Counted from the first letter of the stretch, positions 24,189 through 61,627 are shown. The stretch is 64,000 bases of DNA from Bdellovibrionales bacterium (GCA_965199825.1 OZ241329.1:1280362-1344361), one strand, 5' to 3'. A program made the numbers and translations. Notes: generated by a model from the letters alone, not told the origin.

Positions 24189-24197
24189 AGGTTTTTT

Positions 24198-25823: not shown

Positions 25824-25855
25824 ACCGTCTCAATATCAAACAAGTGTGAGACGGC

Positions 25856-35056: not shown

Positions 35057-35059
35057 CTT

Positions 35060-35104
35060 CAACAGCTGGTCCGAGTTTAGTACCTTCGTTCATATTTGTA
35101 CAAT
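35060..35104 (+). repeat. direct repeat copy 2 (relic of the kinase 3' end upstream of paralog 2)
   Basis: 'caacagctggtccgagtttagtaccttcgttcatatttgtacaat' is nearly identical to 33127-33177, with one substitution and a 6-nt gap. Confidence 0.8.
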
Positions 35105-35151
35105 TGAGAGCCTCAACTGTTTTGAAAACAATCCGGCTCGGTTATAGCTTC

Positions 35152-36987: not shown

Positions 36988-36992
36988 AAAAG

Positions 36993-40953: not shown

Positions 40954-41742
40954 TTAATTCAATCCGCAAGATTGTTGATCGTATATTGTTTTAATTTCTT
41001 TTGCCAAAAGTGCTGTGTTCCACACTGCAGCTTCGGCAATCGTTCCTGATGTCCAATACGCATAACCAGTGTGACCACCAATTTGTAATGTGTAGGTCGA
41101 AGAACTTGTCCACGTGGTACTCGCTGTCCCGTCAGCACGTCCATTGACATAATAGGTGATCGAAGACCCATTGATTACAGCAGCAATAAAATACCATTTT
41201 GCTAATTGCAGCGTAGTTTGCCCAGACGCGCCCGAACCAAAAACAATCTGACCAGGAGGATGTCCATAAGATCCAACTACTCCAAAAATGACATTGTTTG
41301 GACCTGATCTTTGATCGATCACGTAGTTGACGAGACTGGTGTTGTAAGCCGCAAGTTTGATCCATGCACTAAAAGTTAAACCACTTCCGCCTGCAGAACT
41401 GCCAAAGTTCAAAGTGCTTGATGCGGGCACTCCAATGTATCCTGTCGATCCATCGAACAAAGCAGCAGTCGTTCCCACTCGGCCTGGTACTCCTAATGTT
41501 GTTCCACTTTGCGGCACTCCAGTATTTGTAGCGATCGAGGAAGAGTCTGTGACACTTGTTGCTCCATAACTCTCTGCTAAGGTCCAATACCCTACGAGAT
41601 GTGACCACTGCGGTGTCCAACCTGACTTTAATTTATAGCAAGCTCCGCCTGCACCAATCATTGCTGTGAGCGAACTTGTTGGTTGAGCCAGAACAGCAGA
41701 GGGCAGACATAGAATAAAAACTTGAACTAAATAATTTCTCAT
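40954..41742 (-). CDS. LamG (concanavalin-A-like lectin, Laminin_G_3-type) domain protein
   Basis: 'LVGYWTLAES...DSS...ALFDGSTGYIGVP...LTFSAWIKL...WYFIAAVINGSSITYYVNG...LQIGG...GTIAEAAVWNTALLAKEIKTIY'. ATG 41742 overlaps the stop of the 1638-aa fibre gene as ATGA. Signal peptide 'VFILCLPSAVLAQP'. Confidence 0.7.
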   Translation of the reverse strand: MRNYLVQVFILCLPSAVLAQPTSSLTAMIGAGGACYKLKSGWTPQWSHLVGYWTLAESYGATSVTDSSSIATNTGVPQSGTTLGVPGRVGTTAALFDGSTGYIGVPASSTLNFGSSAGGSGLTFSAWIKLAAYNTSLVNYVIDQRSGPNNVIFGVVGSYGHPPGQIVFGSGASGQTTLQLAKWYFIAAVINGSSITYYVNGRADGTASTTWTSSSTYTLQIGGHTGYAYWTSGTIAEAAVWNTALLAKEIKTIYDQQSCGLN

Positions 41743-44700
41743 TGATACCCACTCGCCCAAGTGACATAGCAGTCATAAGTTGAACCATTATATATTGTTG
41801 TCATAGTGATCAGCGTTCCACCAGAACCAGTTGTTACAATGGTATTGGCCGCCGACGACAAGGGTTTGTATTTGATTGATCCACAACTGGCCGCTGAGAA
41901 AACAATATTGATTGAGGCGGTGTCTTTAAAAGAGATCAAATAATTTGCTCCATTTGCAGGAGTTCCGGTAAAGGTGAGTGCCACAGTATCATTTGCAACC
42001 GCAAAGGTCGGACTAATCGAAAATGCATTGGTTGCTGAAAAAGCTAAATTTGCTGCCCAACTTGGACTTGATCCCGTGACGCTTGGACTACTCTGAAGAC
42101 TGACGATGGCTCCATTCACAGTCAGCGCAGTGGTGGGCGAAGATGTGCCGATCCCCACATTGCCGCTCACGATCATTCCATTTGTGGGTGCTGCAAGCAC
42201 ACCACCGTAGGTGCCGAAGGAAGCACTGCCTGCGACGTCGAGGGTTGAAGTGTTGCTGGATGTATTGACCCCGAGACGTGAGCCTGCGCTGTTAGTAATA
42301 TTATAATTGAGAGTACTTCCAGAATTGCCCGAAATCCCTCCGGCATTGGAATAGAATCGAACGCCACCGCCGTAATAAATCAGACTTCCACCACTGGTGA
42401 TATCTAGATTTCCATAAACAGTAAGTGTTGGGTCACTTGCCGAAGTTTCGGCCTTGGCGGTCCCACCGATCGCCATCCAGCCTTGCACATCGGCCGAGCC
42501 GGAGACATCTAAGTTGTTTTGAGGATTACTTGTACCAATCCCCACATTGCCTGATGAATCCACGCGCATTCTCTCAGGCGCATAAGAGTTGTTTATATTT
42601 GTGGTATGAAAAGCAATGTGTCCGTCACCGGCTGCAGCGGTGAGGAGAAGTTGTGCTTGTGCCTTTGAAGCGTCTGTAACTACCCCGTCTGAGATGCGGC
42701 GATTTGAAGAGAGCCCAAAATTATCGCCGTAGGTTCCCAAATAAATTTTGTTGCTGGTGTTTGATGCAACGGCAAGATCTGTATTTGCTGATGCACCGAC
42801 CTGAAGTTGGGCCCCTGGCGATGTTGTTCCAATACCCACATTACCACTCACAATCAAACCATTCGCAGGTGCTGCTGTTACGCCTGCATAACTTCCAACC
42901 GACATTCCACCCGTTACATCCAATGAAGATTTGGGAGCAGCAGTTGCTCCGACGTTGATGGGGCTTGAGATATAATTGTTTGCGCCTCCGTTTGCTTCAC
43001 CTAAACGAAATCCATTTCCTGTCACATAGCCATGACTGTAGGCCGTGCCCATGCAGAGATCACTAATGCAAAGACCATCGGCATTGATTCCACCCACAAC
43101 TGAAAGAGTATTTGTGGGCGAGGTCGTTCCTATTCCAACTTTTCCATTTTTTAAAATTTGAAACGCGGTCGAAGGAGTCGACGCGCTTTGCCCATTCCCA
43201 ATCACGAATAAGGGATCGGTGGCCACCCATGCGTTGGCGGTCTCGCCGCCGTAAGTGTTGTACGTCCCCATAACGGTTTCGTTGTATGCGGGCGCCTTAA
43301 CAGCTGATCCGATGGCGACTGCGCTTTGCCCATTTGCTTGACTTGAAGAACCCAATGCAAGGCTTGCATAGCCTGAAGCATTATTCGCAGTTCCAAGTGC
43401 AACCGAATTTGATCCCGAAGTCTGACTCCCATATCCTAATGCAATCGAAGCAAGTCCGCGCGATGTGCTCGTGTTCGATTGAACCGAACCATCGTTCATC
43501 ACTGTGAAAGCCGAAGTCCCATTCGAAAGAATATTTAGATTGGATGAGCGCACAAGGCATCCATTGTGAGGCACGGCGGATGTTCCTAATTGACCACGCG
43601 AAACTCCGGTAAATGAATTTGATGTGAGTCCCGTGTAGGAGACCGCTTCGGAGTCGAGCCATAAAATTCCAGAAGAGCCGAATCCAGTGGTTGAACTTAC
43701 GGGAATGACAGTGACCGTATTATCGATCGAACCTGCAAAGGTGCCAGCAACAAGGCTTGATGCCGAATTCACTCTGAGACTTCCAGTCACCTCTAGTGTT
43801 TCATTCGGAGTGACCGTTCCAATACCGACCCGACCACCACCCTGAATAGTCATCAACGGGGTTGCGGTGCCCGTATTTGAATAATCGTAGAATCGAAAAC
43901 CACCAACCGTTCCGTATCCACGATTAGCTATGAAGTCGCTTTCACCGTCGCCACCCGAATAATTAGATCCAATCAAATTTTTCCCCTGGAATTCAAGTTT
44001 GGTGAGATCAATAGATGGAGAAAGATTTGGATCCAAATTTCCATTTGGTCCCCCTAAACTGACGACGCCAGAAATATCTAAATTATAACGGGGTGATGTG
44101 GTTCCGATTCCAACACTCCCACCGGTCGCCAAAAGATTTCCGTTGGTGATCGCAACATCACCCCCGCCAAACGCAGAGGGTCCAAAGGATTTGATTGAAA
44201 CTGTATTAAACCCATTGCCTTGACTGATATTAAGAACGCCATTGCCGTAATTATTAAACGCGTTGATCACCGAGTTTGGCCCGTTCGGTACGGTCAATTG
44301 GCCAACATTTGCGGTCCCTGCCACATCGAGTTTGCCACCCATACTAGAATTGTTTGTAACCGTGAGGCCAGTGCCTGTGCCGCTGGCGGTGACTGGTCCA
44401 GAAAAAGTTTCTGTTCCTGCAATTGTCTGGTTGCCCGAAGTGTTGAGCAGTGACCCGTAGGCTCCTCCGTTTTGTGACAACATTAATTGGTTGGAGGTGG
44501 AATCGAAATACATGCGGGCTTGGGCGCTGGGTGCGACCGAAGGCGCAATCGTTCCTCGAAGCGAAATCGCACCGTTAACATCGAAAGTTGAGGCGGGTGA
44601 TGTGGTGCCGATGCCGACATTTCCGCTTGAAGTAATTCTCATCGCTTCGCTTAAAGCTGTAGCATTCGGCCCAACATCAAATGCGATGATTCCATTTGTT

Positions 44701-46655
44701 GTATTCTCGAGACGCAAGTTTGACGAATTTGATTTTAAGACAATGTCACCGTCATTGGTTGTATTTGTCCATGCACCATTGCCAACGGCCACACCGAGGA
44801 CACCCTTTGAAGCCCCATTGGAATCTAAATTTATACCGACAGAATTTGTGCCATCAACTACAAGGCCGTCGTATTGACTGGTAGAAAAAACATGTAGCCG
44901 CTTAGCCGGCGAAGTTGTTCCAATACCAACATTGCCATTAGCAAGAAGTGTCATGACTGTCGTTTCAGCGTTTGGAGGGTCGCCGATTGCGGCTTTGAGA
45001 TTGATATCTAATCGAGTGTTTGGACCATACCCATTAGCAATACTATTCGCCGCGTAGGTTCCAAGTTTAAATGCTGCGGCTTGGGAATAAGAAATGCCAC
45101 CATTGGTCGGTCTTGAAATTTGAAATTCATTTTCGGTTCCTACACCAGCAGCGGCAAGAGACCCGCTAACGTCGAGCGCGGAGTTTGGTGAAGCTGTAGC
45201 AATACCAACTCTTCCACCACGAGGATTTAGGAGTAGAGGTTGGTAGCTTCCTATCTTTGATGAAGAAATATATGCGGCATCGACTGATCCATCATATCCC
45301 ATATATAAACTCTGACCGCTTGTACCGGTATTGATTGCAAAACCGTGAGCGCTTACTTCATACCCACTCGAGCTTGTATCTGCAGTGACTACCAGTTTGG
45401 AAATCGGAGCGTTGTCACCAATTCCTACGTTGCCGTTTGCGGTTACTGTCATGACGTCGCCGATGCCGCTGCGTAAATTTAGAATTCTATTGGTCGCACC
45501 GATGGAAGCTACATTCACAGCTAAACCGTTCGCGTGACTATCTGAAAATTCGTTATTCAAAATCCCCGCGGCATAGCCACCTCCAGAAGTTGCCCACGAG
45601 ATTCCGTTTGAATTTTCATATGAGGTGCTCGCATCGCCAATACCATACGGTGTATTTGCTAATTGGGTAGACGGTGCTGTCGTCCCAATCCCAACAGATC
45701 CATTTCCTAAAATTGTCATTTTCGTTGAAGGGGAGTTACTTGTAGTCCCGCTTGAGGTTGGCGTTGCAGTTTGAAATTGGATTGTCGAACCGCCAGCACC
45801 TGTAGATACCCCAGAAGACAAATTTAAAAATCCTCCACCTTTGTCACTTGAAGATAAGGTTGCGCCACCAGCCGTAACGCTCAAATTGTTGCCCGCACTA
45901 TTCGAAGTGGTCGAGCGCTCCATCGCAATATTGCGCGCGACATTGCCACCAAAACTCAAATCAGAACTAGGATTTGTCGTGCCCACACCAATTTTGCCTG
46001 AGCCTAAACTTAAATTTCCACCTGCAAGTCCAGCAAACGAAGTCGATGTTCCGTTGATCAAAGCGAGCAATTCCGCATAAGGCGTGCTCGCAAAGATCGC
46101 ATCCACTTTAGATTGGGTGGTGTCGCTGCTCGTTTGTATAAAACCCGATGAGGCTGCACTTGAAAGTCTCTCGGCTTCAAAGGCATACGGCACAGACTCA
46201 ATGACGTAAGGCGCAGAAAATGCCACCGTGTCGGGTCCATCAACAAAGCTCACATAAATGTTGCGTGAATCGGTCGGTTGCGGAGTGTAGGCGGTAGCAG
46301 TGGGTGCTCCCACGCAATTTAAACTCGAAAGTGTTCCGGCATTTTGAAAAGCACTGGAGACCGAAAGACCAAGATCATTCGATGTTCTTACACCTGTACC
46401 GAGCGTGACCGCAAAAATGCCGTTCGAGTTTGTCATGTTAAGAGGAAAAGTTTCTTCAAACAAAACACATTCGGGCCGTGAGTTCGCAATCGCCATGCTT
46501 GTGACACGGATAGTGAGATCCACCGTTGAGGACTCAACCACCACGCTGTCTTTTAAAAGTTGTCCTTGAAAGGTGATGCCTTGGGGGGCAGCAAAAGCAC
46601 CGCGGCTGATAATAAAGAGTGCGAGCCCAATCCTGAGCCCTTGTTTTAAATTCAT
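41739..46655 (-). CDS. giant fibre protein E (type-1 N-module, about 12 'GNVGIGTTSP' junctions, Hep_Hag-like repeats, no S74 domain)
   Basis: 1638 aa with signal peptide ending 'GAFA|APQG'. It has the family N-module and ends in a unique ~130-aa domain ('...YDCYVTWASGYQ'). Confidence 0.85.
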   Translation of the reverse strand: MNLKQGLRIGLALFIISRGAFAAPQGITFQGQLLKDSVVVESSTVDLTIRVTSMAIANSRPECVLFEETFPLNMTNSNGIFAVTLGTGVRTSNDLGLSVSSAFQNAGTLSSLNCVGAPTATAYTPQPTDSRNIYVSFVDGPDTVAFSAPYVIESVPYAFEAERLSSAASSGFIQTSSDTTQSKVDAIFASTPYAELLALINGTSTSFAGLAGGNLSLGSGKIGVGTTNPSSDLSFGGNVARNIAMERSTTSNSAGNNLSVTAGGATLSSSDKGGGFLNLSSGVSTGAGGSTIQFQTATPTSSGTTSNSPSTKMTILGNGSVGIGTTAPSTQLANTPYGIGDASTSYENSNGISWATSGGGYAAGILNNEFSDSHANGLAVNVASIGATNRILNLRSGIGDVMTVTANGNVGIGDNAPISKLVVTADTSSSGYEVSAHGFAINTGTSGQSLYMGYDGSVDAAYISSSKIGSYQPLLLNPRGGRVGIATASPNSALDVSGSLAAAGVGTENEFQISRPTNGGISYSQAAAFKLGTYAANSIANGYGPNTRLDINLKAAIGDPPNAETTVMTLLANGNVGIGTTSPAKRLHVFSTSQYDGLVVDGTNSVGINLDSNGASKGVLGVAVGNGAWTNTTNDGDIVLKSNSSNLRLENTTNGIIAFDVGPNATALSEAMRITSSGNVGIGTTSPASTFDVNGAISLRGTIAPSVAPSAQARMYFDSTSNQLMLSQNGGAYGSLLNTSGNQTIAGTETFSGPVTASGTGTGLTVTNNSSMGGKLDVAGTANVGQLTVPNGPNSVINAFNNYGNGVLNISQGNGFNTVSIKSFGPSAFGGGDVAITNGNLLATGGSVGIGTTSPRYNLDISGVVSLGGPNGNLDPNLSPSIDLTKLEFQGKNLIGSNYSGGDGESDFIANRGYGTVGGFRFYDYSNTGTATPLMTIQGGGRVGIGTVTPNETLEVTGSLRVNSASSLVAGTFAGSIDNTVTVIPVSSTTGFGSSGILWLDSEAVSYTGLTSNSFTGVSRGQLGTSAVPHNGCLVRSSNLNILSNGTSAFTVMNDGSVQSNTSTSRGLASIALGYGSQTSGSNSVALGTANNASGYASLALGSSSQANGQSAVAIGSAVKAPAYNETVMGTYNTYGGETANAWVATDPLFVIGNGQSASTPSTAFQILKNGKVGIGTTSPTNTLSVVGGINADGLCISDLCMGTAYSHGYVTGNGFRLGEANGGANNYISSPINVGATAAPKSSLDVTGGMSVGSYAGVTAAPANGLIVSGNVGIGTTSPGAQLQVGASANTDLAVASNTSNKIYLGTYGDNFGLSSNRRISDGVVTDASKAQAQLLLTAAAGDGHIAFHTTNINNSYAPERMRVDSSGNVGIGTSNPQNNLDVSGSADVQGWMAIGGTAKAETSASDPTLTVYGNLDITSGGSLIYYGGGVRFYSNAGGISGNSGSTLNYNITNSAGSRLGVNTSSNTSTLDVAGSASFGTYGGVLAAPTNGMIVSGNVGIGTSSPTTALTVNGAIVSLQSSPSVTGSSPSWAANLAFSATNAFSISPTFAVANDTVALTFTGTPANGANYLISFKDTASINIVFSAASCGSIKYKPLSSAANTIVTTGSGGTLITMTTIYNGSTYDCYVTWASGYQ

Positions 46656-46679
46656 AATCTCTCCATAAATTATTTTTAT

Positions 46680-47057
46680 TTAACGAGCTTGAACCAATCT
46701 TTCCAATTGCTCGATCCGAGCTTTGAGCTCGGCTGATTCTTGTTTTGATTTTTGTTCTGCTTGTTCGAGATCTACGATTCGCTGTTTTAATTGCGTATTT
46801 TGACTATAAATCGTTTTTATTGACTCAATCACAGGAGCGATAAGGTGATCGTAGACAACCGATTTCAATCCTGACTCAGGATCGGTTTTTATCGATTGAG
46901 GATAAACCTTTTCGACATCTTGTGCGATCAATCCAATCTGCTCTTGATTTCCAAAATGCTCCTGGTCTTTCCAGTCGTAACTAACACCCTGAAGTTTTAA
47001 GATATTCTCGAGCGAATTTTGAAGTGGATCGATATTATTTTTTAGGCGCACGTCCGA
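46680..47057 (-). other. Peptidase_S74-type intramolecular chaperone/autoprotease domain plus coiled-coil tail (fibre D)
   Basis: 'SDVRLKNNIDPLQNSLENILKLQGVSYDWKD...IGLIAQDVEKVYPQSI...VVYDHLIAPVIESIK' has the Ser...Lys (S-D-x-R-x-K) dyad spacing known from endosialidase and tail-spike C-terminal chaperone domains. Confidence 0.8.
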
Positions 47058-50000
47058 GGGTGATGAACACCCAGTCGACGTGCAAACTTGAGTTCCGCCT
47101 ACGCGCAAAACATTTGTTGATGCGATATTGATGTCGCCGTTGACGTCAAGTTTGTAGGCGGGTGACGTGGTTCCGATACCGACGTTTCCGCTGACGATAA
47201 GCCCATTGGCTGGCGCAGCCGTTCCTGCATATGCTCCGATTGCGGCTTCGCCCGCAACATCAAGATGGTTCACTGGATAAATACTGATTCCGATATTATT
47301 ACTTTTTAAATAACTTGTTCCGCCGTAAGTGTTTCTAATTGTAACAGTCCCATCATATCCAAAAGCCAGTCCTGCACTCACAACTCCAGCGACATCAAGA
47401 GAATCATTAGGAGCGGTCGTCCCAATACCGACACGACCCGCCGAATAAGACAGATTCGAACCATTCTGATTCCAATAACTCGAAGTTGAAGTTCCAACAG
47501 GCACTCCATTGACGGTGAGCGATGTTGCGTTCACGGTGCCTGCGACATCAAGCTTTGTTGCCGGATTTGTTGTTCCAATTCCCACATTGCCGGTGCCATT
47601 CGGTTTGATAATAATATTGTGATTGGTTGCGCCACCGCCGCCATCGCTCGTTATAAACAAAGCTGAATTATACGTTGTGAGAGAAGCTGTATTTACACTT
47701 GAATCATAATTTGAAAACATAATTCCAGAATTCATTCTCAGGCTTCCATATTGATCAAATAGGGAGGTGCCCGCAGAACTCGTAAAGCTTGCCACATCTG
47801 TTCCGGTGGGGCTTGAGACTGAGAGTCTCGCCCCTGGATTTGATGTGCCTATGCCGACGTTGCCGGAAAAATAAGAAGGTGCTGTCGGATCGCTCGTGTA
47901 GATAGACCACTTGTTGGTTCCTTGGACTAAACCTGTGTACACACCATAGGCGGTTGAGATGACCGAACCTAGATTTTGGGTGACGGCAAAAGATCCACCA
48001 CTGGCAGTGGTAATACCACCAGTGCCTGACGTGTAGACTCCACCGTTGATTGCAGTCGCACTCCCAATTGTGGTGTTGTAGGCATTTTGCGCTTGTGCTT
48101 CGAAGCCACGAATAATTCCACTTGGAGAATTTGCTCCATTAAAACTGACTGTCGAATATCCTCCGCGGACAGTAGCAGTGGATGCACTGGATGGATAAAA
48201 ATTCTGATTCATAATAAACGCGTTGGAGCTTCCGGATGAAAGACTGACATTACCTCCCTCAACATCCAGCAAAGCAGAAGGGGCTGTTGTGCCTATGCCG
48301 ACGTTGCCGTTCGGCAGCATAGTCACGATATTTGAACCGTTGGTATTGAAATCGTATCCAGCATAGCTGGATTGAGATCCATTAAAGGTCAGTCTGCCCG
48401 TTGTTCCATTCCGGTTTAGAGAATATCCGTAGCCGGTTCCGTTATACAGACCGAGGCCAGCCCCAGCGACGATACTGCCGGTAAAACTAAAGTTTTGAAA
48501 GCCATCGGTGGAAATTGAGCTTGCTAAAGTGCCGTCTGAACGTTGTGTCTGGATAAGCGGTGAATTTGAATCAGCTATTTTAAAGACGGAGCCCGTAACC
48601 TTAACGCTTCCAGTGACATCCAGTGCTTGAGACGGGTTCGTAATACCGATCCCAACATTCCCACCAACAATCAACGACCCACCTATACTAGAATTATTTA
48701 CTACCGATAATCCAGTGCCTGTGCCACTTACTGTGACTGCGCCGGAAAAAGTTTCGGCTCCCGCTACAGTTTGACCACCTGAAGTACTAAGCAGAGAGCC
48801 GTAAGCTCCACCGTTCTGTGAAAGCATCAGTTGATTCGATGTCGAATCAAAATACATTCTGGCCTGTGCGGTTGGCGAAAGTGCTGGCGCCGACATCGCA
48901 TGCAGCGAAACCGCGCCATTAAGATCAAGAGTCGATGCGGGTGAGATTGTGCCGATGCCGACGTTGCCTCCGTTTGGATTTAATAAAATCGGGTAACTCA
49001 CACCAAAATTTCCACGATCGTGCCCTTGAAACCAAATACCATTTGGTGGCGATGCATAAGCTCCAATGTCTAATAGATTTCCATAGGCATAGCTGCCGCC
49101 GACTCGTAAAATTCCTACCGGGGCAGCTGCATTTCCATTGTAGTCGCTGGTCGTGCCAGCGATTTCAAGAGGGAGCGATGGGTGAGTTGTGCCGATTCCG
49201 ACATTCCCATCATTTCCGCTACCGGTCGTCTTGCTCCCAGGTTTTAGGAGTATGTGTCCGCCATTGCCGCCACCATTACCCCCACCATTTCCTGCAGTGA
49301 CAACAACACTTCCTCCGCTGCCGCTCAGTGATCCGTCTGCTGCGGTGATATTTATATTTGATGAAGCGTCTGAGGCTGAATTGCCGAAGAAGAGGGTCCC
49401 ACTTCTGATGTTAACTGCGCCTCCACCATAATTTCCGCCTCCAGCAGTTATGTTTACCGCACCACCACCGCCCGATCCGTTGCCAGCAGAAAGATTAAGA
49501 ACACCGCCAAGACCATTTGCTGATGAAGCACTGCTTGCCGCTCCTGCAGAGATGTTCACAGTACCAGCATTGCCATGGCCGGCTGCAGGATCTGTATTCG
49601 AACCTGCGGTGAGAGTTATATTTCCAGCAGTCGGTCCAGCATAAATATCGTTATTGCTCGAGCCTGCGACTAAAAAAATTGAAGCCGGGCTTGTACTTGT
49701 CGGAGCTCTCACATCTAGGATGCCTGCAGGATTTGTTGTGCCAATTCCCACATTCCCATTATACCCGATTCGCATTCTTTCTTGATTTAAACCAAAACTA
49801 TTTAAGACACCACTTGTTCTAAAAACAATATTGGTATTGTCGTCATCAAAATTGGATTGTCGAAGAACTCCAATCGACGCGAATGGTGAATTAGTGCTTT
49901 GGTTTGAGCCAAAAATAATATTTCCCATCGATGATCCGTCGTCAGGATTCCCATGCGTGTCATGTAAAAAGACTTGAGGGGAAGATGCGGTAACATCCAG

Positions 50001-51011: not shown

Positions 51012-51020
51012 CTGTCATCC

Positions 51021-51395
51021 TTAACGCTTTTGATTGAGCTTTTCGAGTTGATCCATGCGTGACATCATCGCCGCAGTTTGTTCTTCGAGTTGGACTACGC
51101 GTTCCTTGAGGGCTTTGTTTTCTGTATCTAACGAAGTGATTCTTTCATAAATAGTTTTTATTGATTCAATCACAGGAGCGATAAGATGGTCATAAGCAAT
51201 AGACTTGTAACTTGAACGTAAATCGGTCTTAACCGCTTGGGGATATATTTTTTCGACATCTTGTGCGATCAAACCGATCTGTTCTTCTGCTCCGAATGAT
51301 TCTTGATTCCAGTGATAGCTTACACCTTGCAGCTGCAAGATTTTTGCAAGTGAATCTTCAAGTGGCTCAACATGGTTTTTGAGTCTGAGGTCTGA
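51021..51395 (-). other. S74-type intramolecular chaperone domain (fibre C)
   Basis: 'SDLRLKNHVEPLEDSLAKILQLQGVSYHWNQ...IGLIAQDVEKIYPQAV...IAYDHLIAPVIESIK' plus a heptad-like tail. Confidence 0.8.
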
Positions 51396-54300: not shown

Positions 54301-54791
54301 GCACTCGACAGTCTTTCGGCCTCGATGGCATAAGGCACCGACTGAATCACATAAGGTTGAGCAAAGGCCACGGTGTCTGGTCCATCAACAAATGAGACAT
54401 AAATGTTCCGTGAGTCGGTGGCTAAAGGTGTGTACGCAGTTGCGGTTGGTGCCCCCACACAGTTCAAGCTCGACAATGTTCCGGTGTTGGCAAAAACATT
54501 TGAGATCGAAAGACCAAGATCATTTGATGTTCTCGTGCCCGTGCCTAAAGTGACCAAAAATATGCCGTTCGAGGCGGTCATATTAAGAGAATAGCTTTCT
54601 TCAAACAAGGTGCATTCAGGGCGCGTGCCACTCACAGGCATGCTGGTGATTTTGATTGTGACATCCACGTTTGAGTCTTCGACAATCACACCGTCTTTTA
54701 AAAGTTGGCCTTGGAAGGTGAGGCCTTGGGGGCCAGCAAAAACGGATCGACAAAAAAGAGCGAAAACAAAAAACCATAAATTCAATTTCAC
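51021..54791 (-). CDS. giant fibre protein C (type-2 N-module, 'NTALG' beta-roll repeats, C-terminal S74 domain)
   Basis: 1256 aa with a GTG start after 'aaggaag' and signal 'RSVFA|GPQG'. It has the family N-module, repeats at about 52075-52640, and the C-terminal 'SPSDLRLKNHVEPL...'. Confidence 0.85.
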   Translation of the reverse strand: MKLNLWFFVFALFCRSVFAGPQGLTFQGQLLKDGVIVEDSNVDVTIKITSMPVSGTRPECTLFEESYSLNMTASNGIFLVTLGTGTRTSNDLGLSISNVFANTGTLSSLNCVGAPTATAYTPLATDSRNIYVSFVDGPDTVAFAQPYVIQSVPYAIEAERLSSAASSGFLQTSSDTTQSKVDAIFASTPYAELLALINGTSTSFAGLAGGNLNLGSGRIGVGTTNPSSDLSFGGNVARTIAMERATSSQGNNLTVSAGGATTSSTDQNGGTLNLSSGISTGAGSSAIQFQTSSPASSGTLSNSPSTKMTVLGNGNVGIGTTTPQANLEIQGSTASNLASTSNILQLIRPLNSGVAWPNVATFKLGSYTNGYGPTTELDINLKSTANISATGDYNVMTLLSNGNVGIGTTTPVSTLQVMGTTSAKQFLSTDGYGGRSGLASFVNNSSDGGSVHYYESGSGIGTPYTVTGGMLQYVGSTQTAALKFLNGSTPLVGQIDLSSGGTSVLRVVENGSVGIGTTSPSALLDVYGIGRMAGLGIGTNSMTDGSSLHTLSAYAGNSTVLLEYSGAPTSLVGPSIGLKRTGASKYFLIADDTINNDALSFQLNDGTKIVTITQSGKVGVGTTSPVDDFQINGGITAWRFTSGYGAPNAVNFGNYGNGFYYDANGAAISSNATERIRVLSNGNVGIGTTSPASSLDVNGTISVNGLNAFSLPPDSCTPAGSSIAIGNNALKNQTTGTCGTGSYNIAIGTYAMGSGSPLTGSNNLAIGFKSLTNVNSGGNNACVGNGSCTVLSTANNTTALGLNTAYRVTTGSQNTALGASALQNVTTTNYNTAVGWNSLINTTGSRNTALGASSGSTNVSGSDNILVGNGVGSATLQSGSSNILIGNSVDTPLAATSNYLNIGNVIFATGMNGTLAAPAGNVGIGKINPKLPLDIAGSTLDSNGSEISPAGMLRIESSNGYGNLLDIGAYAAYPNGIWFQAHDRGNFGATYPILLNPKGGNVGIGTLTPSAKLNIVSDAGTDALFIASQYGDAFRVNQYGVSIFNANLVAGYDANISSFAYSAFNDLYITSGYQQSPSKNIIIKPAGNGNVGIATLSPAYTLDVSGDVNIASANVLRFGGNSVCSSSGCTSPSDLRLKNHVEPLEDSLAKILQLQGVSYHWNQESFGAEEQIGLIAQDVEKIYPQAVKTDLRSSYKSIAYDHLIAPVIESIKTIYERITSLDTENKALKERVVQLEEQTAAMMSRMDQLEKLNQKR

Positions 54792-54812
54792 GAAACTTCC
54801 TTTAATAAAACT

Positions 54813-55226
54813 TTACTGCATTAACATTTCGAGCCGAGCCATACGCTTGAGCATTTGTGCATTTTCTTTTTCAAGACGATCCATTCGAATCGTCATCTGG
54901 GCTTTTTCTGATTCAAGTTGTTCGGATTTTAATTTCAACGCTGCAAGCTCCGAATCGGTTGAGATCAATTTTGAGTAAATAGATTTAATTGACTCAATAA
55001 TTGGCGCAACCAAATGATCATAGGCCACCGATTTGATGCCGGATTGAGAATCTGTTGAGATCGCTTCGGGATAAATTTTTTCGACTTCTTGAGCGATCAA
55101 GCCAATTTGTTTATTTTTGTTAAATCGCTCTTTGTCTTGCCAGTCATAACTGACGCCACGAAGATCTAAAATATTTTCTAAAGCATTCTCAAGAGGCTGA
55201 ATATTTTCTTTGAGTCGCAAGTCAGA
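54813..55226 (-). other. S74-type intramolecular chaperone domain (fibre B)
   Basis: 'SDLRLKENIQPLENALENILDLRGVSYDWQD...IGLIAQEVEKIYPEAI...VAYDHLVAPIIESIK' plus a long coiled-coil-like tail. Confidence 0.8.
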
Positions 55227-58200
55227 AGGTGAAGTGCATCCGGTCGAAGAGCAAACTTGGTTGCCGCCAAAGCGAAGTAGATTTGCCGAAGCAATATTCA
55301 AATCTCCACCCACATCGAGTTTGTAGCCAGGTGTTAAAACTCCAACACCCACATTTCCATTTGAGAGGATGTCCATGTAGTGGCTGTAGGCAGCACTGTT
55401 GTAGTTTTGAAATGTGATGCGCCCATTGTTGCCAGCAATAAAATCCAACTGCCCAACTCTTCCAGAGTAATTCGGACCATAAAGCGTCATTGCTGCGCCG
55501 TCGTTTGATCCTGTGTTGGCAGCAAAATCGATTCTTCCTGAGCTGTCGTCTGTTCCGGTTCGGGCGGCATAAATAGATGGCGAATTTCCAGAAAGTTTTA
55601 TTTTTCCTGCAACTTCGAGCATTTCGGATGGGCTGATCGTGCCGATTCCAAATCCCGAACCGGTTAGACGCATTCGTGGTGTGCCGCCGAGATACCAGTT
55701 CATCGTGTTCATCCCAATAAATCCAAAACTCAACTCGTTGTACGATTCAACGGTTACAAGATTCTGATTATTTCCGGCGGTGTCTTTTCCGTAGAGCGCA
55801 TTTCCATTTGCGATCACCATACTCCCATTCACATCGAGTGTGGCTGAAGGTGATGTTGTGTTGATTCCAACTTTGCCAGGTGCTGCGCTGTAAAGTCCTA
55901 CGCCCGGTTGTAAAATAATATTTCCGCCTGAGTATCCTGAATTAACACCGGTACCTGCTGTGACATTGACGTTTCCGCCAGAGGCTCCGGGTGAAGTTCC
56001 GCCATTGCCTGCAGTGAGGTTGAGTGCGCCACCGGTAGCGTAGAGAGAATTACCACTAATTATGTTTATAGGGCCTCCTGCGCCATTACCGCCCGCATAC
56101 CCTCCGTTGAGATTAAGCGCTCCGCCTACAATATTGCCTTTTGAAGTTCCACTTGAAAGTGTCAGCGCTCCAGCCGCACCATTTCCGCTGCTTGTATTCG
56201 ATCCCGATTGTAAAGTGACTGCTCCTGCAGTTGTAGACGTGGCGCTATTTCCTGCAACAAGGTTGATCGCCGCGGAATTTGAGCCGCCCTCCACATCTAA
56301 AATTCCAGCAGGACTTGTCGTCCCGATCCCAACATTGCCCGCAGAGTCGATGGCCAAACGCGATGTTGAATTAGTAATCAAAGACAGTTTAGCTGAGGCC
56401 GCGTCTGCACCCATCCCGATTCCGCTGTAATCGCGAAATCCAAACGCGGGCACGGTCATTGTTGAAGTCGAAAGCGCAATGTAAGCCCCCGCAGTGGTAG
56501 CTCTCATGGCCTGCTTCAATTCAATTTCACCGCCATAAGAAAATAAAACGGGCGAGCCGCAGTTTGAAATTCCGATGCTGCAATTGGCATTGCTGTAAAG
56601 ACCACCCACATTCGGAATTGAAAATGCAGGAGAAGTGACGCTACTTGCTCCTGATGAAGCAAACGAACTCGATGTGAGCGATCCACCAACATTTGCATTG
56701 TTGGTGACCGATAAGCCAGTACCCGCGGCACTTGCGGTCACTGCACCAGAAAATGTTTCTGCCCCAGAAATAGTTTGTCCACCTGAGGTGCTTAAGAGTG
56801 ATCCGTATGCGCTTCCATTTTGAGAAATCATCAGCTGATTCGCCGTTGAATCGAAATACATTCGTGCTTGTGCCACAGGCGAAAGTGGGGGAGCCGAACT
56901 TGCTCGCAAAGAAAATGCACCATTCAGATCGAGAGGTGTGGCGGGAGATGTTGTGTTGATTCCAACATTTCCGCTCGAGCTCACTTGCAAACCAGTATAG
57001 TTTATATAGTAATTTAAATTTGGTTTTGTTTGCGAGATCGATACAATCATCGAACTGCTACTGGAGACAGAAAGTATTGTTCCCCCCGCAACACCGTCTG
57101 CAAAAACGAATTGCGAACCAATAAGGTCTGAGGTCCACATCGTTCCTGAACCGGTGATTGTGGTTCCTGACTGCGTTGCCAATCCGGTTTGATATTGAGC
57201 GGGCGATGCAGAAAATGGATTCATCGGAAACAGAGTATTCACCCCAACATAACTCGAGTTCTTCACAATCAATCCCGTTGTGAAGTTCAGGCCTACTCCT
57301 GCAGCTGGCACTGCTGGAGCTGTCCGTAATAAAATATCACCGTGATCAAATCCGATTTGTTGAGCCGGATTGTAGGCTGTTTGACTTGCCCAAAATCCAA
57401 TGTTGGTTGTTCCTGCTGACAAATAGTAATTTCCGAAAAAGGGTTGAAAGTTGAAACTGCTGCCACCAGGGGTGCTATTCATACTGATCGATCCGTAATC
57501 ACCAACCGAGAAATTTATTTTCTGTCCCCGAACGTCGAGCTGACTTCCAGGACTTGTCGTCCCGATCCCAACATTGCCCGCACCATCAAATCGCGCGACC
57601 TCTTTCGTTGTTCCGCTTTGAGCGGTAGAAATCGCTAAGTAGCCGCCCTCACTTCCTTGAGTCGTAGTTTGAATTCCAGATGTAATATTTGAAAAATCAA
57701 ATTTGTTTCCGCTACCATTTAACGCTTCGAACAACATTCTTGGTGAAGCCACATTTGAGATTCTAAAAACATCGGTACTATCACTTGCGACGTAGAGCTT
57801 TGAAAATGCATAAGGACTGGCTTCACCAATCCCGACATTGCCGGATGGAGAAATGGTGAGAGCCGCATAATTCGGCGAGCGATCGGTTGTTCCGTTGCCT
57901 TGAAAACTTTTAACAATATTTAAAGCGATGCCCGAGCCGCCATTGCCGGTTGCCATTCCCGCATTTAAATTGAGTGTTCCACCATTTTGATTGGTGCTCG
58001 ATGAAGTCGCACCACCCGCAGCCACAGTTAAATTATTTCCTTGCGACGAAGTCGCGCGTTCCATCGCAATCGTGCGCGCGACATTGCCACCAAAACTGAG
58101 ATCTGAACTGGGATTCGTCGTGCCCACACCAATTCTGCCTGAGCCCAAATTTAAATTACCGCCTGCAAGTCCTGCAAACGAAGTGGAGGTGCCGTTGATC

Positions 58201-58772
58201 AATGCGAGCAATTCCGCATAAGGCGTGCTCGCAAAAATCGCATCCACTTTAGATTGGGTGGTGTCGCTGCTGGTTTGTAAAAAACCCGACGACGCCGCAG
58301 TCGAAAGTCTTTCGGCTTCAAAGGCATAAGGGACGGATTCAATCACATAAGGAGCAGAAAATGCCACGGTGTCAGGTCCATCAACAAAGCTCACATAAAT
58401 ATTTCGTGAATCAGTGGGCTGCGGAGTGTAGGCGGTAGCAGATGGTGCTCCTATACAATTCAAACTCGAAAGTGTTCCCGCATTTTGAAAAACATTGGAG
58501 ACCGAAAGACCAAGATCATTGGACGTTCTTACACCTGTACCTAAAGTCACCGCAAAGATGCCGTTCGAATTTGTCATGTTGAGTGGAAAGGTTTCTTCGA
58601 ATAAAACACATTCAGGCCTCGTGTTTATCATGGGCATGCTTGTCACTCGAATGGTGAGGTCTACAGTGGGCGACTCAACAACCACGCTGTCTTTTAAAAG
58701 CTGTCCTTGAAAGGTGATGCCTTGAGGGGCAGCATAAATAAAATGTGTTAAAATTAAATTTAATAAAATCAT
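54813..58772 (-). CDS. giant fibre protein B (type-1 N-module, Gly-rich beta-helix-like segment, C-terminal S74 domain)
   Basis: 1319 aa with signal 'HFIYA|APQG'. Its N-module is nearly identical to that of fibre E. C-terminal 'SPSDLRLKENIQPL...'. Confidence 0.85.
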   Translation of the reverse strand: MILLNLILTHFIYAAPQGITFQGQLLKDSVVVESPTVDLTIRVTSMPMINTRPECVLFEETFPLNMTNSNGIFAVTLGTGVRTSNDLGLSVSNVFQNAGTLSSLNCIGAPSATAYTPQPTDSRNIYVSFVDGPDTVAFSAPYVIESVPYAFEAERLSTAASSGFLQTSSDTTQSKVDAIFASTPYAELLALINGTSTSFAGLAGGNLNLGSGRIGVGTTNPSSDLSFGGNVARTIAMERATSSQGNNLTVAAGGATSSSTNQNGGTLNLNAGMATGNGGSGIALNIVKSFQGNGTTDRSPNYAALTISPSGNVGIGEASPYAFSKLYVASDSTDVFRISNVASPRMLFEALNGSGNKFDFSNITSGIQTTTQGSEGGYLAISTAQSGTTKEVARFDGAGNVGIGTTSPGSQLDVRGQKINFSVGDYGSISMNSTPGGSSFNFQPFFGNYYLSAGTTNIGFWASQTAYNPAQQIGFDHGDILLRTAPAVPAAGVGLNFTTGLIVKNSSYVGVNTLFPMNPFSASPAQYQTGLATQSGTTITGSGTMWTSDLIGSQFVFADGVAGGTILSVSSSSSMIVSISQTKPNLNYYINYTGLQVSSSGNVGINTTSPATPLDLNGAFSLRASSAPPLSPVAQARMYFDSTANQLMISQNGSAYGSLLSTSGGQTISGAETFSGAVTASAAGTGLSVTNNANVGGSLTSSSFASSGASSVTSPAFSIPNVGGLYSNANCSIGISNCGSPVLFSYGGEIELKQAMRATTAGAYIALSTSTMTVPAFGFRDYSGIGMGADAASAKLSLITNSTSRLAIDSAGNVGIGTTSPAGILDVEGGSNSAAINLVAGNSATSTTAGAVTLQSGSNTSSGNGAAGALTLSSGTSKGNIVGGALNLNGGYAGGNGAGGPINIISGNSLYATGGALNLTAGNGGTSPGASGGNVNVTAGTGVNSGYSGGNIILQPGVGLYSAAPGKVGINTTSPSATLDVNGSMVIANGNALYGKDTAGNNQNLVTVESYNELSFGFIGMNTMNWYLGGTPRMRLTGSGFGIGTISPSEMLEVAGKIKLSGNSPSIYAARTGTDDSSGRIDFAANTGSNDGAAMTLYGPNYSGRVGQLDFIAGNNGRITFQNYNSAAYSHYMDILSNGNVGVGVLTPGYKLDVGGDLNIASANLLRFGGNQVCSSTGCTSPSDLRLKENIQPLENALENILDLRGVSYDWQDKERFNKNKQIGLIAQEVEKIYPEAISTDSQSGIKSVAYDHLVAPIIESIKSIYSKLISTDSELAALKLKSEQLESEKAQMTIRMDRLEKENAQMLKRMARLEMLMQ
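57973..58266 (-). repeat. near-identical ~294-nt tract shared with 60273-60566 (fibre B vs fibre A)
   Basis: My base-by-base comparison at a constant offset of 2300 nt finds only 3 mismatches. The flanks diverge much more. Confidence 0.8.
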
Positions 58773-58801
58773 TTGGGTCCCTTTTCAATAGATAGCAATC
58801 T

Positions 58802-59179
58802 TCAATGAGGAGAAATTAATTTTTCAAGGCGTTCGAAGCGTGCCGAAGATTGAGCCGCCTCAAACTCAAGCTGACTCACTTTTTCCTTAAGCACTGCATT
58901 TTCGTTTCTTAAAGCTGTGATTTGTTCATAAATTGATTTTATTGATTCAATGACAGGAGCCACAAGATGATCGTAAGCAATCGATTTAAAGCCCGATTCA
59001 GAATCAGTTTTTACAGTTTCTGGATAAATAGCTTCGACTTCTTGTGCAATCAAACCGACTTGATTTTGTTTTCCAAACTGACTTTGATTTTTCCAATGAT
59101 AATTCACACCTTGAAGCTTTAAAATATTCTCAAGAGAGTTTTGCAGCGGCTCAATATCTTCTTTTAACCGCGCATCTGA
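58802..59179 (-). other. S74-type intramolecular chaperone domain (fibre A)
   Basis: 'SDARLKEDIEPLQNSLENILKLQGVNYHWKN...VGLIAQEVEAIYPETV...IAYDHLVAPVIESIK'. Confidence 0.8.
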
Positions 59180-61072
59180 TGGCGAGGTACATCCAGTTGA
59201 GGAACACACTTGGGTTCCACCAAAACGCAAGGCATTTGCTGAAGCGATATTTATGTCGCCATTGACGTCGAGCTTGTAATTGGGCGGATTCGTCCCGATC
59301 CCGACGTTGCCGCCGCCCGAGGGCAGCAATAAAATACTACTCATAGAATTGGAGCCCCAACCCGATGTTAAATAAAGTGAGTTTACAGATCCGTATCCAC
59401 CGGGACCGCCGAGATTTGGATCGTTTCCGACAATTTGTCCGTTTGAACTTGAAAGTCCGCCGTAGCGATCAAAAGTAAAATTCGAGTAGGGTGTGGCGAT
59501 GCGAACAAGATCAACGCCCGTTGCACCTTGCACAACCAGCGGCATTGCGGCAGAAGTTGTTCCAATCCCCACATTGCCGCTAAAAGTTGCGTTTCCCACA
59601 CCATCATCAATCAAATTTCGAAATACGGGATTTCCAAATGCACCACTCATACTGCCAACAGCGCCGTTCGGGTTCATTCCAAAAAATGTTTGGTTGCCAT
59701 TGGCGGGGATAGCACCTTGTAACGCGCCCGAAATGTTGTACATCCCGAGTTGAGCTTTTCCGTAGCTCTGGCCAAAATAGGATCCTAAGGTTCCACTAAA
59801 ATCTCCGGCGTTGCGTATTCTTAAACTTGGATCTGTTATCACTGCTTCGACTACACCAGAGGGAGAATTTGTGCCCAAGCCGACATTTCCAGTGCCTCGA
59901 TCGATGAACAAAGCGGAGATGCCCGCGTAAGAACTCTCATGGCGGAGTATGTTTAATCCGCGGGGAATTATGTCTTCGTTGTTGATTGTGAATCCGTAAT
60001 AATCATCATAAAAACGCAACTTGATTCCATTGGTGTGAATGCTTCCTCCGGCACCGTTGATTCTTAGATAAGCATTCGCGGGTGTGTTGATGAGAGCTGA
60101 AAGTTCGAGCAACTCTGTTGGTGCTGAATTTCCGATCCCTACATTGCCATTTCCAAGCAAGGTCATCCTTGTCGAAGGCGTATTACTCGCAGTCCCTGAA
60201 CTTGCAGACGAAGAAGTCTGAAACTGAATCGCCGATGCACCAGCGCCCGTAGAAATCCCAGATGAAAGATTCAGTGTTCCACCATTTTGATTGGTGCTCG
60301 ATGATGTCGCACCACCCGCAGCCACAGTTAAATTATTTCCTTGCGACGAAGTCGCGCGTTCCATCGCAATCGTGCGTGCGACATTGCCACCAAAACTGAG
60401 ATCTGAACTGGGATTCGTCGTGCCCACACCAATTCTGCCTGAGCCCAAATTTAAATTACCGCCTGCAAGTCCTGCAAACGAAGTGGAGGTGCCGTTGATC
60501 AATGCGAGCAATTCCGCGTAAGGCGTGCTCGCAAAAATCGCATCCACTTTAGATTGGGTGGTGTCGTTGCTGGTTTGCAAAAATCCCGATGACGTCGCAG
60601 TCGAAAGTCTTTCGGCCTCAATTGCATAAGGGACCGACTGAATCACATAAGGTTGAGCAAAGGCGACGGTGTCGGGTCCATCAACAAACGAGACATAAAT
60701 ATTTCGTGAGTCGGTGGGGAGTGGAGTGTAGGCCGTTGCGGTTGGTGCACCCACACAATTCAAACTCGAAAGTGTTCCGGAGTTTGCAAAAACATTTGAG
60801 ATCGCAAGTCCAAGATCATTTGCGGTTCTGGTGCCCGTACCTAAAGTGACTAAAAATATTCCGTTGGATGCGGTCATATTTAAAGAATAACTTTCCTCAA
60901 ACACCGTACATTCTGGCCGTGTACCCGCAACCGGCATGCTGGTGATTTTAAAAGTGACATCGACATTTGAGTTTTCGACCACGACACCGTCTTTTAAAAG
61001 TTGACCTTGAAAAGTCACACCTTGAGGTCCGGCATAAACAAATTGGCTGAAACAAAAAATAAAGAAGAACAT
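58802..61072 (-). CDS. fibre protein A (type-2 N-module, short shaft, C-terminal S74 domain)
   Basis: 756 aa with signal 'SQFVYA|GPQG'. It has the family N-module and the C-terminal 'SPSDARLKEDIEPL...'. It starts 9 nt after the lipoprotein gene. Confidence 0.85.
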   Translation of the reverse strand: MFFFIFCFSQFVYAGPQGVTFQGQLLKDGVVVENSNVDVTFKITSMPVAGTRPECTVFEESYSLNMTASNGIFLVTLGTGTRTANDLGLAISNVFANSGTLSSLNCVGAPTATAYTPLPTDSRNIYVSFVDGPDTVAFAQPYVIQSVPYAIEAERLSTATSSGFLQTSNDTTQSKVDAIFASTPYAELLALINGTSTSFAGLAGGNLNLGSGRIGVGTTNPSSDLSFGGNVARTIAMERATSSQGNNLTVAAGGATSSSTNQNGGTLNLSSGISTGAGASAIQFQTSSSASSGTASNTPSTRMTLLGNGNVGIGNSAPTELLELSALINTPANAYLRINGAGGSIHTNGIKLRFYDDYYGFTINNEDIIPRGLNILRHESSYAGISALFIDRGTGNVGLGTNSPSGVVEAVITDPSLRIRNAGDFSGTLGSYFGQSYGKAQLGMYNISGALQGAIPANGNQTFFGMNPNGAVGSMSGAFGNPVFRNLIDDGVGNATFSGNVGIGTTSAAMPLVVQGATGVDLVRIATPYSNFTFDRYGGLSSSNGQIVGNDPNLGGPGGYGSVNSLYLTSGWGSNSMSSILLLPSGGGNVGIGTNPPNYKLDVNGDINIASANALRFGGTQVCSSTGCTSPSDARLKEDIEPLQNSLENILKLQGVNYHWKNQSQFGKQNQVGLIAQEVEAIYPETVKTDSESGFKSIAYDHLVAPVIESIKSIYEQITALRNENAVLKEKVSQLEFEAAQSSARFERLEKLISPH
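60273..60566 (-). repeat. near-identical ~294-nt tract shared with 57973-58266
   Basis: See the partner feature: 3 mismatches in about 294 nt. Confidence 0.8.
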
Positions 61073-61081
61073 TTATTTTCC

Positions 61082-61627
61082 TTACCTTTGGAAGGTTTGG
61101 GTTTGGACGCCGCCTTTGAGCGTGTAGCGGCCACTTGTTTTTACAGCTCCTGGCTCTTGGTTTCCAAAATTGCCTAGCAGCTCGTAGCGACTATCGGTGG
61201 ATGTGATTTTTTTTGCGCCAGCGATGGCTCCAAAGACCGATCGGCCCATGGGTGTTGTGAACACAACGTCGGATTTTAATACGATTGCCACATTGTTAAC
61301 CAAAATTGTTTTCACCCCCACTTGAGTGCTTCGCAAAATGCAGGTGGATACTCCATTGCTATTCGAAGTTGTGCAGGGCAGAGCGGTGACGCCACCGCCT
61401 GACACAACAGTGTAGGTGGGTCTAAATCCAACAACCGGAGTGCTGTCAGAATTTGTTAATTGGATGACGATCAATAAATCGGATTGCCCATCAGCTGCAG
61501 CAGGACCGTTGGAAATGATTTCTGATTTTTTAAAATCTTGGATCGATGCGTGTTTGAAAGTTCCAGTGATGGTGCCTTTTGAGCAGTTGACCAAAAACAA
61601 AAAAGTGAGAAAAATAAAAAAACGCAT
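61082..61627 (-). CDS. lipoprotein with bacterial Ig-like (Big_1-type) domain, first gene of the fibre array
   Basis: Lipobox 'FLVNC'. 'AADGQSDLLIVIQLTNSDSTPVVGFRPTYTVVSGG...NSNGVSTCILRSTQVGVKTILV'. It has the same size and layout as the lipoprotein at 2965-3531. Confidence 0.6.
   Translation of the reverse strand: MRFFIFLTFLFLVNCSKGTITGTFKHASIQDFKKSEIISNGPAAADGQSDLLIVIQLTNSDSTPVVGFRPTYTVVSGGGVTALPCTTSNSNGVSTCILRSTQVGVKTILVNNVAIVLKSDVVFTTPMGRSVFGAIAGAKKITSTDSRYELLGNFGNQEPGAVKTSGRYTLKGGVQTQTFQR

Follow-up and report, generated by a model that had tools for sequence, protein, structure and literature searches.

A 64-kb stretch of DNA from a Bdellovibrionales bacterium (GCA_965199825.1, OZ241329.1:1280362-1344361; referred to as the window, that is, the whole 64,000 nucleotides) most probably contains a chromosomal cluster of a Bdellovibrio-like bacterium in which five paralogous fibres of the mosaic adhesive trimer (MAT) family are encoded behind the genes for an immunoglobulin (Ig)-like lipoprotein and a putative barrel protein, probably in one operon. 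Among the candidates for the wide prey recognition of Bdellovibrio, MAT fibres are at present the strongest, and the locus appears to show how a predator can widen its set of adhesins: genes are duplicated in tandem, modules are shuffled, and a common base is homogenised. It represents a compact natural experiment, with five fibres that have a common base and different distal modules next to one lipoprotein/barrel pair; therefore, the question of how such fibres are anchored is directly testable.

Five MAT fibres in one array

The array occupied positions 61627-40954 of the window and contained the following genes, with lengths in amino acids (aa):

61627..61082, minus strand: lipoprotein gene, 181 aa, first gene of the array (from the open reading frame listing and translation)
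61072..58802, minus strand: MAT fibre 1, 756 aa, S74 type; 4 capping loops, SDARLK at residue 632
58772..54813, minus strand: MAT fibre 2, 1319 aa, S74 type; 7 capping loops, SDLRLK at residue 1183, modules D and E
54791..51021, minus strand: MAT fibre 3, 1256 aa, GTG start, S74 type; 7 capping loops, SDLRLK at residue 1133, modules F and G
51011..46680, minus strand: MAT fibre 4, 1443 aa, S74 type; 10 capping loops, SDVRLK at residue 1319, modules E, G and D
46655..41739, minus strand: MAT fibre 5, 1638 aa, non-S74 type; 11 capping loops, unique ~140-aa C-terminal tip
41742..40954 (alternative start 41760), minus strand: secreted LamG/concanavalin-A-like lectin-fold protein, 262 aa from the ATG at 41742; Laminin_G_3

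The five fibres were assigned to the MAT family (Caulton et al., 2024) because all of them passed the curated model NCBIfam NF053851 ('Bdello_MAT_N', mosaic adhesive trimer family chimeric fiber protein), with 100.4-106.4 bits (106.4 bits for fibre 1 and 101.4 bits for fibre 5) at a cut-off of 60 bits. An earlier interpretation made from the DNA without database searches (the sequence-only reading) had linked the fibres to chimeric adhesive trimers described in Bdellovibrio, and this proved to be right. The same reading had singled out a junction motif, GNVGIGTT(S/N)P..L(D/E)V.G, which occurred 4, 7, 7, 10, and 11 times in fibres 1-5, as compared to 0.00-0.01 times in composition-matched shuffles. 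This motif was matched to the published capping loop of MAT fibres, which has the consensus ~NVGIGTxxPxxxL (Supplementary Fig. 18 of Caulton et al., 2024; PMC10769870). Fibres 1-4 also contained a Peptidase_S74 domain (PF13884; E 1e-17 to 1e-19, with 1.8e-19 in fibre 1) that started with an SDxxxK motif (SDARLK, SDLRLK, SDLRLK, and SDVRLK, respectively). No S74 domain was found in fibre 5 by the Pfam scan; this fibre contained YadA_head-like repeats near residue 1067 (24.3 bits, below the cut-off of 25), and its shaft weakly matched two MAT crystal structures, 8OML and 8OND.

Inspection of the N-termini revealed, on every fibre, a hydrophobic stretch of 14-23 aa ending in VYA, IYA, VFA, AKA, or AFA directly before (A/G)PQG (VYA/G, IYA/A, VFA/G, AKA/G, and AFA/A; slash, putative cleavage point). 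These are consistent with the Sec-type signal peptides proposed by the sequence-only reading and with the signal peptides of MAT proteins, and a basic n-region was absent from two of the five. A beta-rich N-domain directly followed the signal peptide in the AlphaFold2 (AF2) model of residues 15-215 of fibre 1, which was beta-rich over model residues 5-131 (predicted local distance difference test, pLDDT, 77-92) and helical thereafter. Foldseek searches with this model detected no significant relative in the PDB or among viral models, in agreement with the report that the MAT N-domain is without a structural homologue (Caulton et al., 2024; PMC10769870). When the N-domain was used in an exhaustive HMMER search, 862 cluster representatives were obtained; in the best 150 of these 862 matches, found in proteins of 179-3247 aa, the domain was always N-terminal. 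In searches based on word indexing, only 16 matches were returned for the full N-module and the proteins of the window itself were missed, as low-complexity words filled the candidate list, and a 28-sequence N-domain profile gave only seven short matches, with no named protein of B. bacteriovorus HD100 among them. Length-matched candidates for HD100 orthologues were rejected after comparison with PDB sequences, since P0141 and P0105 had no match, and the matches of P0144 were limited to shaft segments in five MAT structures.

The S74 domains and the shaft matches to the trimeric structures 8OML and 8OND suggest that the fibres are homotrimeric, and their family suggests that they are displayed on the surface and bind prey glycans. 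Judging from the family, the fibres would be exported by Sec, and each would fold as a long homotrimeric beta-helical shaft with capping loops. In fibres 1-4, the C-terminal S74 chaperone would check folding and cleave itself at the Ser of SDxxxK. The conserved N-terminal domain would then hold the fibre on the cell surface, and the variable distal modules would bind glycans of the prey surface.

All seven genes listed above (the lipoprotein, the five fibres, and LamG) had been described by the sequence-only reading as minus-strand genes with gaps of 9-29 nucleotides (nt) or an ATGA overlap, and the open reading frames (ORFs) reproduced all of them. The spacers were, in order, 9, 29, 21, 9, and 24 nt, followed by a 4-nt ATGA overlap between the stop of fibre 5 and the LamG ATG at 41742, and every start in the array was preceded by a ribosome-binding site of the AAGG/GGAG type. 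Pattern scans of the region for promoters and terminators gave counts no higher than those for shuffled sequence; the best minus-strand promoter-like site in that scan was located at 61839..61812. No terminator-like sites were seen between the array genes in the terminator scan, which itself performed no better than shuffles. The tight spacing and the lack of intergenic terminator-like sites suggest that the array is probably transcribed as one operon. A silent-cassette or phase-variation system was rejected because all five fibre genes were complete and equipped with individual ribosome-binding sites and signal peptides, and because neither an invertase nor a recombinase was located nearby.

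Shared base, exchanged modules, and the locus in relatives

The five fibres aligned without difficulty over an N-terminal base of ~310-330 aa. The conserved N-module that had been read from the sequence was thus real, but it is longer than the ~290 aa then given. Over the first ~215 aa of the base, protein identity among the five fibres was 75-93%. DNA identity among the paralogues was 71-87% in the base and 68-72% in the S74 modules (59-66% at the protein level), and little else could be aligned. The identity was also very uneven within the base, where the sliding-window DNA identity between paralogues ranged from 59% to 100%. Fibres 1 and 2 were 59-72% identical in codons 31-105 and 99-100% identical in codons ~181-285; fibres 1 and 4 had an identity peak of 92-93% in codons 61-105, and fibres 2 and 5 had a peak of 86-91% in codons 61-165. 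One of these patterns involved two neighbouring copies:

60566..60273, minus strand: putative conversion tract in fibre 1, gene nt 507-800; 291 of 294 nt identical to fibre 2
58266..57973, minus strand: putative conversion tract in fibre 2, counterpart of the fibre 1 tract

This 294-nt tract, which contained only three mismatches (99% identity), bears the hallmark of gene conversion between adjacent genes, because its upstream flank (nt 43-480) was only 73.7% identical and nothing could be aligned downstream.

To obtain a module map, the fibres were cut at the capping loops and the pieces were clustered. Modules B (N-domain) and A (neck) were common to all five fibres, and module C (S74) to four of them. 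Among the internal modules, D was present in three fibres (59-74% identity) and E, F, and G in two fibres each, and the remaining pieces were unique. Since the shared internal modules stand in different orders, such as D-E in fibre 2 and E-G-D in fibre 4, shuffling of the middle modules was shown at the sequence level. The sequence-only reading had pictured one common socket presenting different tips, which agrees with the published description of a conserved retention end and a diversified prey end (PMC10769870). Fibres with such a common base should be suitable for tip-swapping in the engineering of prey range.

The sampled relatives indicate how the array may have originated. When one genome per GTDB species was scanned, five loci were identified, all in metagenome-assembled genomes (MAGs) of Bdellovibrio or Bdellovibrionales; a metagenome scan with the subfamily alignment identified two loci, and look-ups of lipoprotein homologues gave further loci. 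The comparison covered nine distinct related loci (L001, L002=L006, L003, L004, L005, L008=L009, L010, L011=L012, and L017; the equals sign joins duplicates). Seven more distant MAT loci (L007, L013-L016, L018, and L019) were also sampled and, with a second locus in the window itself, make eight. In the nine related loci, exactly one MAT gene followed the lipoprotein gene. The stop codon of the lipoprotein gene was located 4 nt inside the MAT start in these loci, whereas it lies 9 nt before it in the window. The single MAT at the locus varied between species (690, 759, 812, 864, 970, 1059, and 1286 aa), with differing distal content. Comparison across relatives for a constant base with varying tips had been proposed as a check, and the outcome at the single-MAT loci was as predicted. 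In L002 (9923-13038) and L006, which are identical over 4172 nt and come from two independent assemblies of one Bdellovibrio MAG species, the MAT gene behind the lipoprotein was broken into two overlapping ORFs (268 and 790 aa) by a frameshift, which is either real or an assembly error common to both.

Because each sampled relative carries one MAT gene at the locus, the five-fold array is best described as an expansion that is specific to this genome among those sampled. The array would have originated from tandem duplication at a locus with one MAT gene; the middle parts would then have been diversified by module shuffling, and the base of ~310-330 aa would have been kept alike by recombination between the copies. 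A possible alternative, which should be regarded as rather doubtful, is a recent tandem duplication of redundant MAT genes, in which case the bases would be alike simply because they are young, with no shared socket, and the lipoprotein would be either a surface protein that is co-expressed but unrelated to the fibres or a factor for folding or piloting in the periplasm. Among the matches listed, each N-domain and each S74 module of the window was closest to its counterparts in the window and not to those of other genomes, as expected for young duplicates. On the other hand, the S74 modules were far more diverged than the bases, and the base is a patchwork that includes a tract of 99% identity, which points to bases under ongoing homogenisation rather than of uniform age. 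If the lipoprotein is irrelevant, what remains is a set of new members of a known family that are unusually densely arranged.

Candidate upstream partners and neighbouring genes

The lipoprotein contained the putative lipobox LVNC, and its gene ended 9 nt before fibre 1. The textbook lipobox is [LVI][ASTVI][GAS]C. Two putative lipoboxes of the region, LVNC (61583-61594, minus strand) and FNNC of a nearby glycoside hydrolase family 5 (GH5) protein (40810-40821, minus strand), have Asn at position -1, which is unusual. The lipoprotein had a weak Pfam match to Big_1, and its homologues carry Invasin_D3 or Big_1. The AF2 model revealed a beta-sandwich over residues 35-123 (pLDDT 72-86) and a tail with pLDDT <50; the best Foldseek matches of this model were intimin D00-D0, invasin, and the Ig domains of SbsC (E ~1e-3). 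The C-terminal tail, which comprises ~45 aa, was strongly conserved.

Orthologues of the lipoprotein (49-57% identity) were located directly upstream of a MAT gene in nine of nine distinct related loci. A hidden Markov model (HMM) built from the tail only also detected short lipoproteins upstream of MAT in L005 (E 5e-15) and L017 (1e-16), which contained the tail without the Ig domain. The tail looks like the indispensable part of the lipoprotein, since it is kept in these two loci where the Ig domain was lost. The same HMM did not significantly match the second lipoprotein of the window or any upstream ORF of L013-L016; therefore, a universal tail motif was not established. In the more distant loci, an ORF with a lipobox was located directly upstream of MAT in six of eight (L007, L013-L016, and the second locus of the window), and in L007 and L013-L016 it overlapped MAT by 4 nt or preceded it at 4-78 nt. 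These distributions indicate that the pairing of a lipoprotein with MAT is frequent but not universal.

A 508-aa protein encoded upstream of the lipoprotein is the second candidate partner:

63245..61719, minus strand: 508-aa envelope protein (putative barrel), from its sequence pattern; FecR match below the cut-off

This protein contained an N-terminal hydrophobic helix, a FecR-like domain (21.3 bits, below the Pfam cut-off), a Pro-rich linker, and a conserved C-terminal domain of ~225 aa. As read from the sequence, the latter has a C-terminus of alternating hydrophobic residues with a terminal Phe (...FEIRLGFDF). Homologues with 37-48% identity in the C-terminal ~225 aa were located upstream of lipoprotein/MAT in L001-L006, L010, and L017. 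The family appears to keep this C-terminal domain and to exchange the N-terminal part, which was FecR-like in the window, L004, L005, and L010, LysM-like in L003, and short in L001, L002, and L017. The protein might span the envelope, because its N-terminal helix has no obvious signal-peptidase site.

The Ig-like lipoprotein core and the putative barrel raise the question of an autotransporter. The fibres could be trimeric autotransporter adhesins of type Vc, or the barrel and the Ig-like lipoprotein could represent a split inverse autotransporter of type Ve (intimin/invasin-like), and both of these options seem highly unlikely. The YadA_head match in fibre 5, which was below threshold, and the resemblance of the lipoprotein core to intimin and invasin Ig domains are in line with such a reading, as is the LysM-like N-terminus of one barrel homologue, which is like that of intimin. 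However, a YadA-type C-terminal membrane anchor was not found in the Pfam searches, and the fibres end with S74 or with a soluble tip. Furthermore, the barrel domain had no inverse-autotransporter match in Pfam. The barrel is also C-terminal in its protein and the Ig domain is located on a separate lipoprotein, whereas type Ve proteins have an N-terminal barrel and Big_1 passengers on one polypeptide.

The lipoprotein, through its conserved tail and perhaps with the barrel, would act as a common anchor or export helper for the five bases. A more specific version of this suggestion, which must be considered tentative, is that the lipoprotein tail, maybe threaded through or docked on the barrel, is the sought element that keeps the MAT N-domain on the outer membrane of the predator or pilots the fibre across this membrane, with one socket serving five fibres and gene conversion keeping the bases compatible. 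The surface element that is bound by the MAT N-domain awaits identification (Caulton et al., 2024; PMC10769870), and the array yields a specific candidate for this partner. The pairing of lipoprotein and MAT, which was tight or overlapping in nine of nine related loci at an identity of only 49-57%, and which recurred at the second locus of the window, argues against an unrelated lipoprotein that is merely co-expressed with young duplicates, as does the retention of the tail where the Ig domain was lost.

Several points weigh against parts of the proposed explanation, including the common anchor. Among the loci examined, L018, which has three MAT genes, and L019 had no adjacent small lipoprotein, which also fits recent duplication with an unrelated lipoprotein; because of these loci, the partner is either not universal or encoded elsewhere. 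Homology of the window lipoprotein to the upstream ORFs of L007 and L013-L016 was not demonstrable. The link between lipoprotein and fibres consists of synteny, and it is from gene order that the lipoprotein may anchor the fibres or help to export them. Similarly, the ~225-aa domain looks like an outer-membrane beta-barrel from its sequence pattern, and profile searches found no PDB or Pfam match for it. The likeness of the five bases could partly result from recent duplication and not from selection for a common partner. Finally, single MAT deletions that have been published had little phenotype (PMC10769870), and thus functional importance is hard to prove.

The genes downstream of the fibres point to glycans. 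The LamG protein matched Laminin_G_3 (E 1.6e-18) and had a signal-peptide-like N-terminus (MRNYLVQVFILCLPSAVLAQP). Its gene is coupled through the ATGA overlap to fibre 5, the sole fibre of the array without an intramolecular chaperone. The next gene encodes a hydrolase:

40884..39391, minus strand: GH5-family glycoside hydrolase, 497 aa; Pfam Cellulase (GH5), lipoprotein-like N-terminus (FNNC)

The Pfam Cellulase (GH5) match of this protein had an E value of 1.2e-44. An accessory glycan role is suggested because LamG is coupled to the chaperone-less fibre 5 and the GH5 lipoprotein follows; LamG and GH5 are likely glycan-binding and glycan-cutting partners of the fibres. The transcription unit may be wider than 61627-40954, with the 508-aa gene at 91 nt upstream of the lipoprotein gene and, on the same strand downstream of LamG, the GH5 hydrolase after 69 nt and then a RibD_C gene after 9 nt. 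The GH5 gene may be part of the same transcription unit as the array. In more distant loci, L018 (3880-18755) combined a polysaccharide-lyase-like gene with three MAT genes in a span of 18 kb, and the MAT gene of L019 (5950-13810) adjoined a LamG_3 protein and a pectate-lyase-like protein. These glycan-active neighbours parallel the LamG and GH5 genes of the window.

A second MAT locus was identified at the other end of the window:

1565-2968, plus strand: OmpA-C-domain protein (Pfam OmpA)
2965-3531, plus strand: Big_1/Invasin_D3 lipoprotein (E 5.5e-9 to the array lipoprotein)
3546-8300, plus strand: sixth MAT fibre, 1584 aa, non-S74, glycine-rich tip (NF053851 104.2 bits; MAT_N HMM E 8.5e-48; Pfam Gly_rich_2)

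The sixth MAT contained no capping-loop motifs and is located in a region of higher G+C (48-53%). The genes at 1565-8300 (plus strand) are thus recognized as a second, independent locus of the same three-gene design. The array neighbours comprised two-component, chemotaxis, GH5, RibD_C, and porin genes, and Pfam and PHROG scans assigned the rest of the window to DNA repair, two-component and chemotaxis-like proteins, a porin, GH5 enzymes, and unassigned ORFs. The chemotaxis-like cluster (12795-27763) comprised two CheA-type hybrid kinases, Hpt/receiver proteins, a PAS-MCP, CheB, CheR, and a GAF-PAS histidine kinase, and a second GH5-like protein (25856-27763) was located after the CheA-type signalling genes. 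Three successive large ORFs (609, 654, and 570 aa) at 33227-38705 (plus strand) had no Pfam or PHROG match.

This context bears on a possible origin of the region from a prophage, tailocin, or contractile injection system that decayed and left its tail-fibre genes behind. The S74 domains and many PHROG tail-fibre matches in shaft and C-terminal parts resemble such a remnant, and fibre 1 matches gp37 of phage S16 in the PDB. However, no capsid, terminase, tape-measure, baseplate, sheath, integrase, lysis, or packaging genes were found in the 64 kb by the Pfam and PHROG scans, and the PHROG matches were confined to fibre shafts, S74 parts, and the LamG domain. Every fibre has a signal peptide and a cellular MAT N-domain, and PHROG matches were lacking in this domain and in the lipoprotein, barrel, and neighbouring proteins. 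The N-domain was also not found in a pattern scan of IMG/VR and had no viral structural homologue, and the same locus in relatives is placed among cellular genes. These results make a phage-derived remnant extremely improbable, and the region is accordingly classified as cellular and not as a prophage remnant, a view that the sequence-only reading had already taken.

Comparison with known systems

B. bacteriovorus HD100 harbors 21 MAT members, 13 with and 8 without an S74 chaperone (Caulton et al., Nat Microbiol 2024; PMC10769870). MAT proteins are surface-displayed, one was shown to bind prey glycans, and their logic combines one conserved end for retention with one diversified end for prey (PMC10769870). 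The MATs of HD100 (Bd3182 of the S74 type; Bd2133 and Bd1334 of the non-S74 type) resemble the array fibres in having a signal peptide, a conserved beta-rich N-domain of ~130 aa, a shaft with capping loops, and either S74 with SDxxxK or a non-S74 tip; the mosaic, tip-swapping design and the lengths of 750-1640 aa are also shared. In contrast, the HD100 genes are mostly dispersed, with two adjacent pairs (bd0704/0705 and bd3266/3267; PMC10769870), whereas five genes abut one another in the array. Compared to HD100, the array paralogues share a base of ~310-330 aa with putative conversion tracts, which extends beyond the N-domain of ~170 aa. The upstream lipoprotein/barrel partner is conserved at the array locus and absent from the account of the HD100 MATs (PMC10769870).

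The sequence-only reading took a tandem array with a dedicated lipoprotein as not known to have been described, which overstated its novelty. Tandem MAT genes have in fact been published, as Peredibacter starrii HCB2-198 is reported to contain 20 contiguous MAT genes (BMC Microbiol 2026; PMC13147790); on the other hand, no paper linking MAT proteins to a lipoprotein partner was found in the searchable literature. P. starrii is similar to the array in having many adjoining MAT-annotated genes in the genome of a predatory Bdellovibrionota member. The MATs of P. starrii were named by annotation ('tail fiber domain-containing' or FhaB motifs) and are compared here by description, and shared bases, recombination, and partners are not covered in that work.

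Phage fibres of the S74 type, including K1F endosialidase, the L-shaped fibre pb1 of T5, and gp37 of S16, also have the S74 Ser-Lys motif, a beta-helical trimeric shaft, and glycan recognition in common with the array. However, these fibres carry phage-specific N-termini on the virion baseplate, whereas the array fibres have a signal peptide, a cellular N-domain, and a non-phage context. The gp37 and gp38 proteins of T4-type phages provide an analogy only: fibre 5 is without an intramolecular chaperone and is followed by the translationally coupled small lectin-fold LamG, but the LamG protein has no sequence or fold relationship to gp38 of the T4 type. The fibres are therefore new members of a known curated family, which an up-to-date annotation by the Prokaryotic Genome Annotation Pipeline (PGAP) would name as such. 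What is new is the dense expansion to five copies behind a conserved small lipoprotein gene, and the features that go further than the searchable literature are the recombination-mosaic base, the shuffled middle modules, and the conserved upstream lipoprotein, usually together with the barrel.

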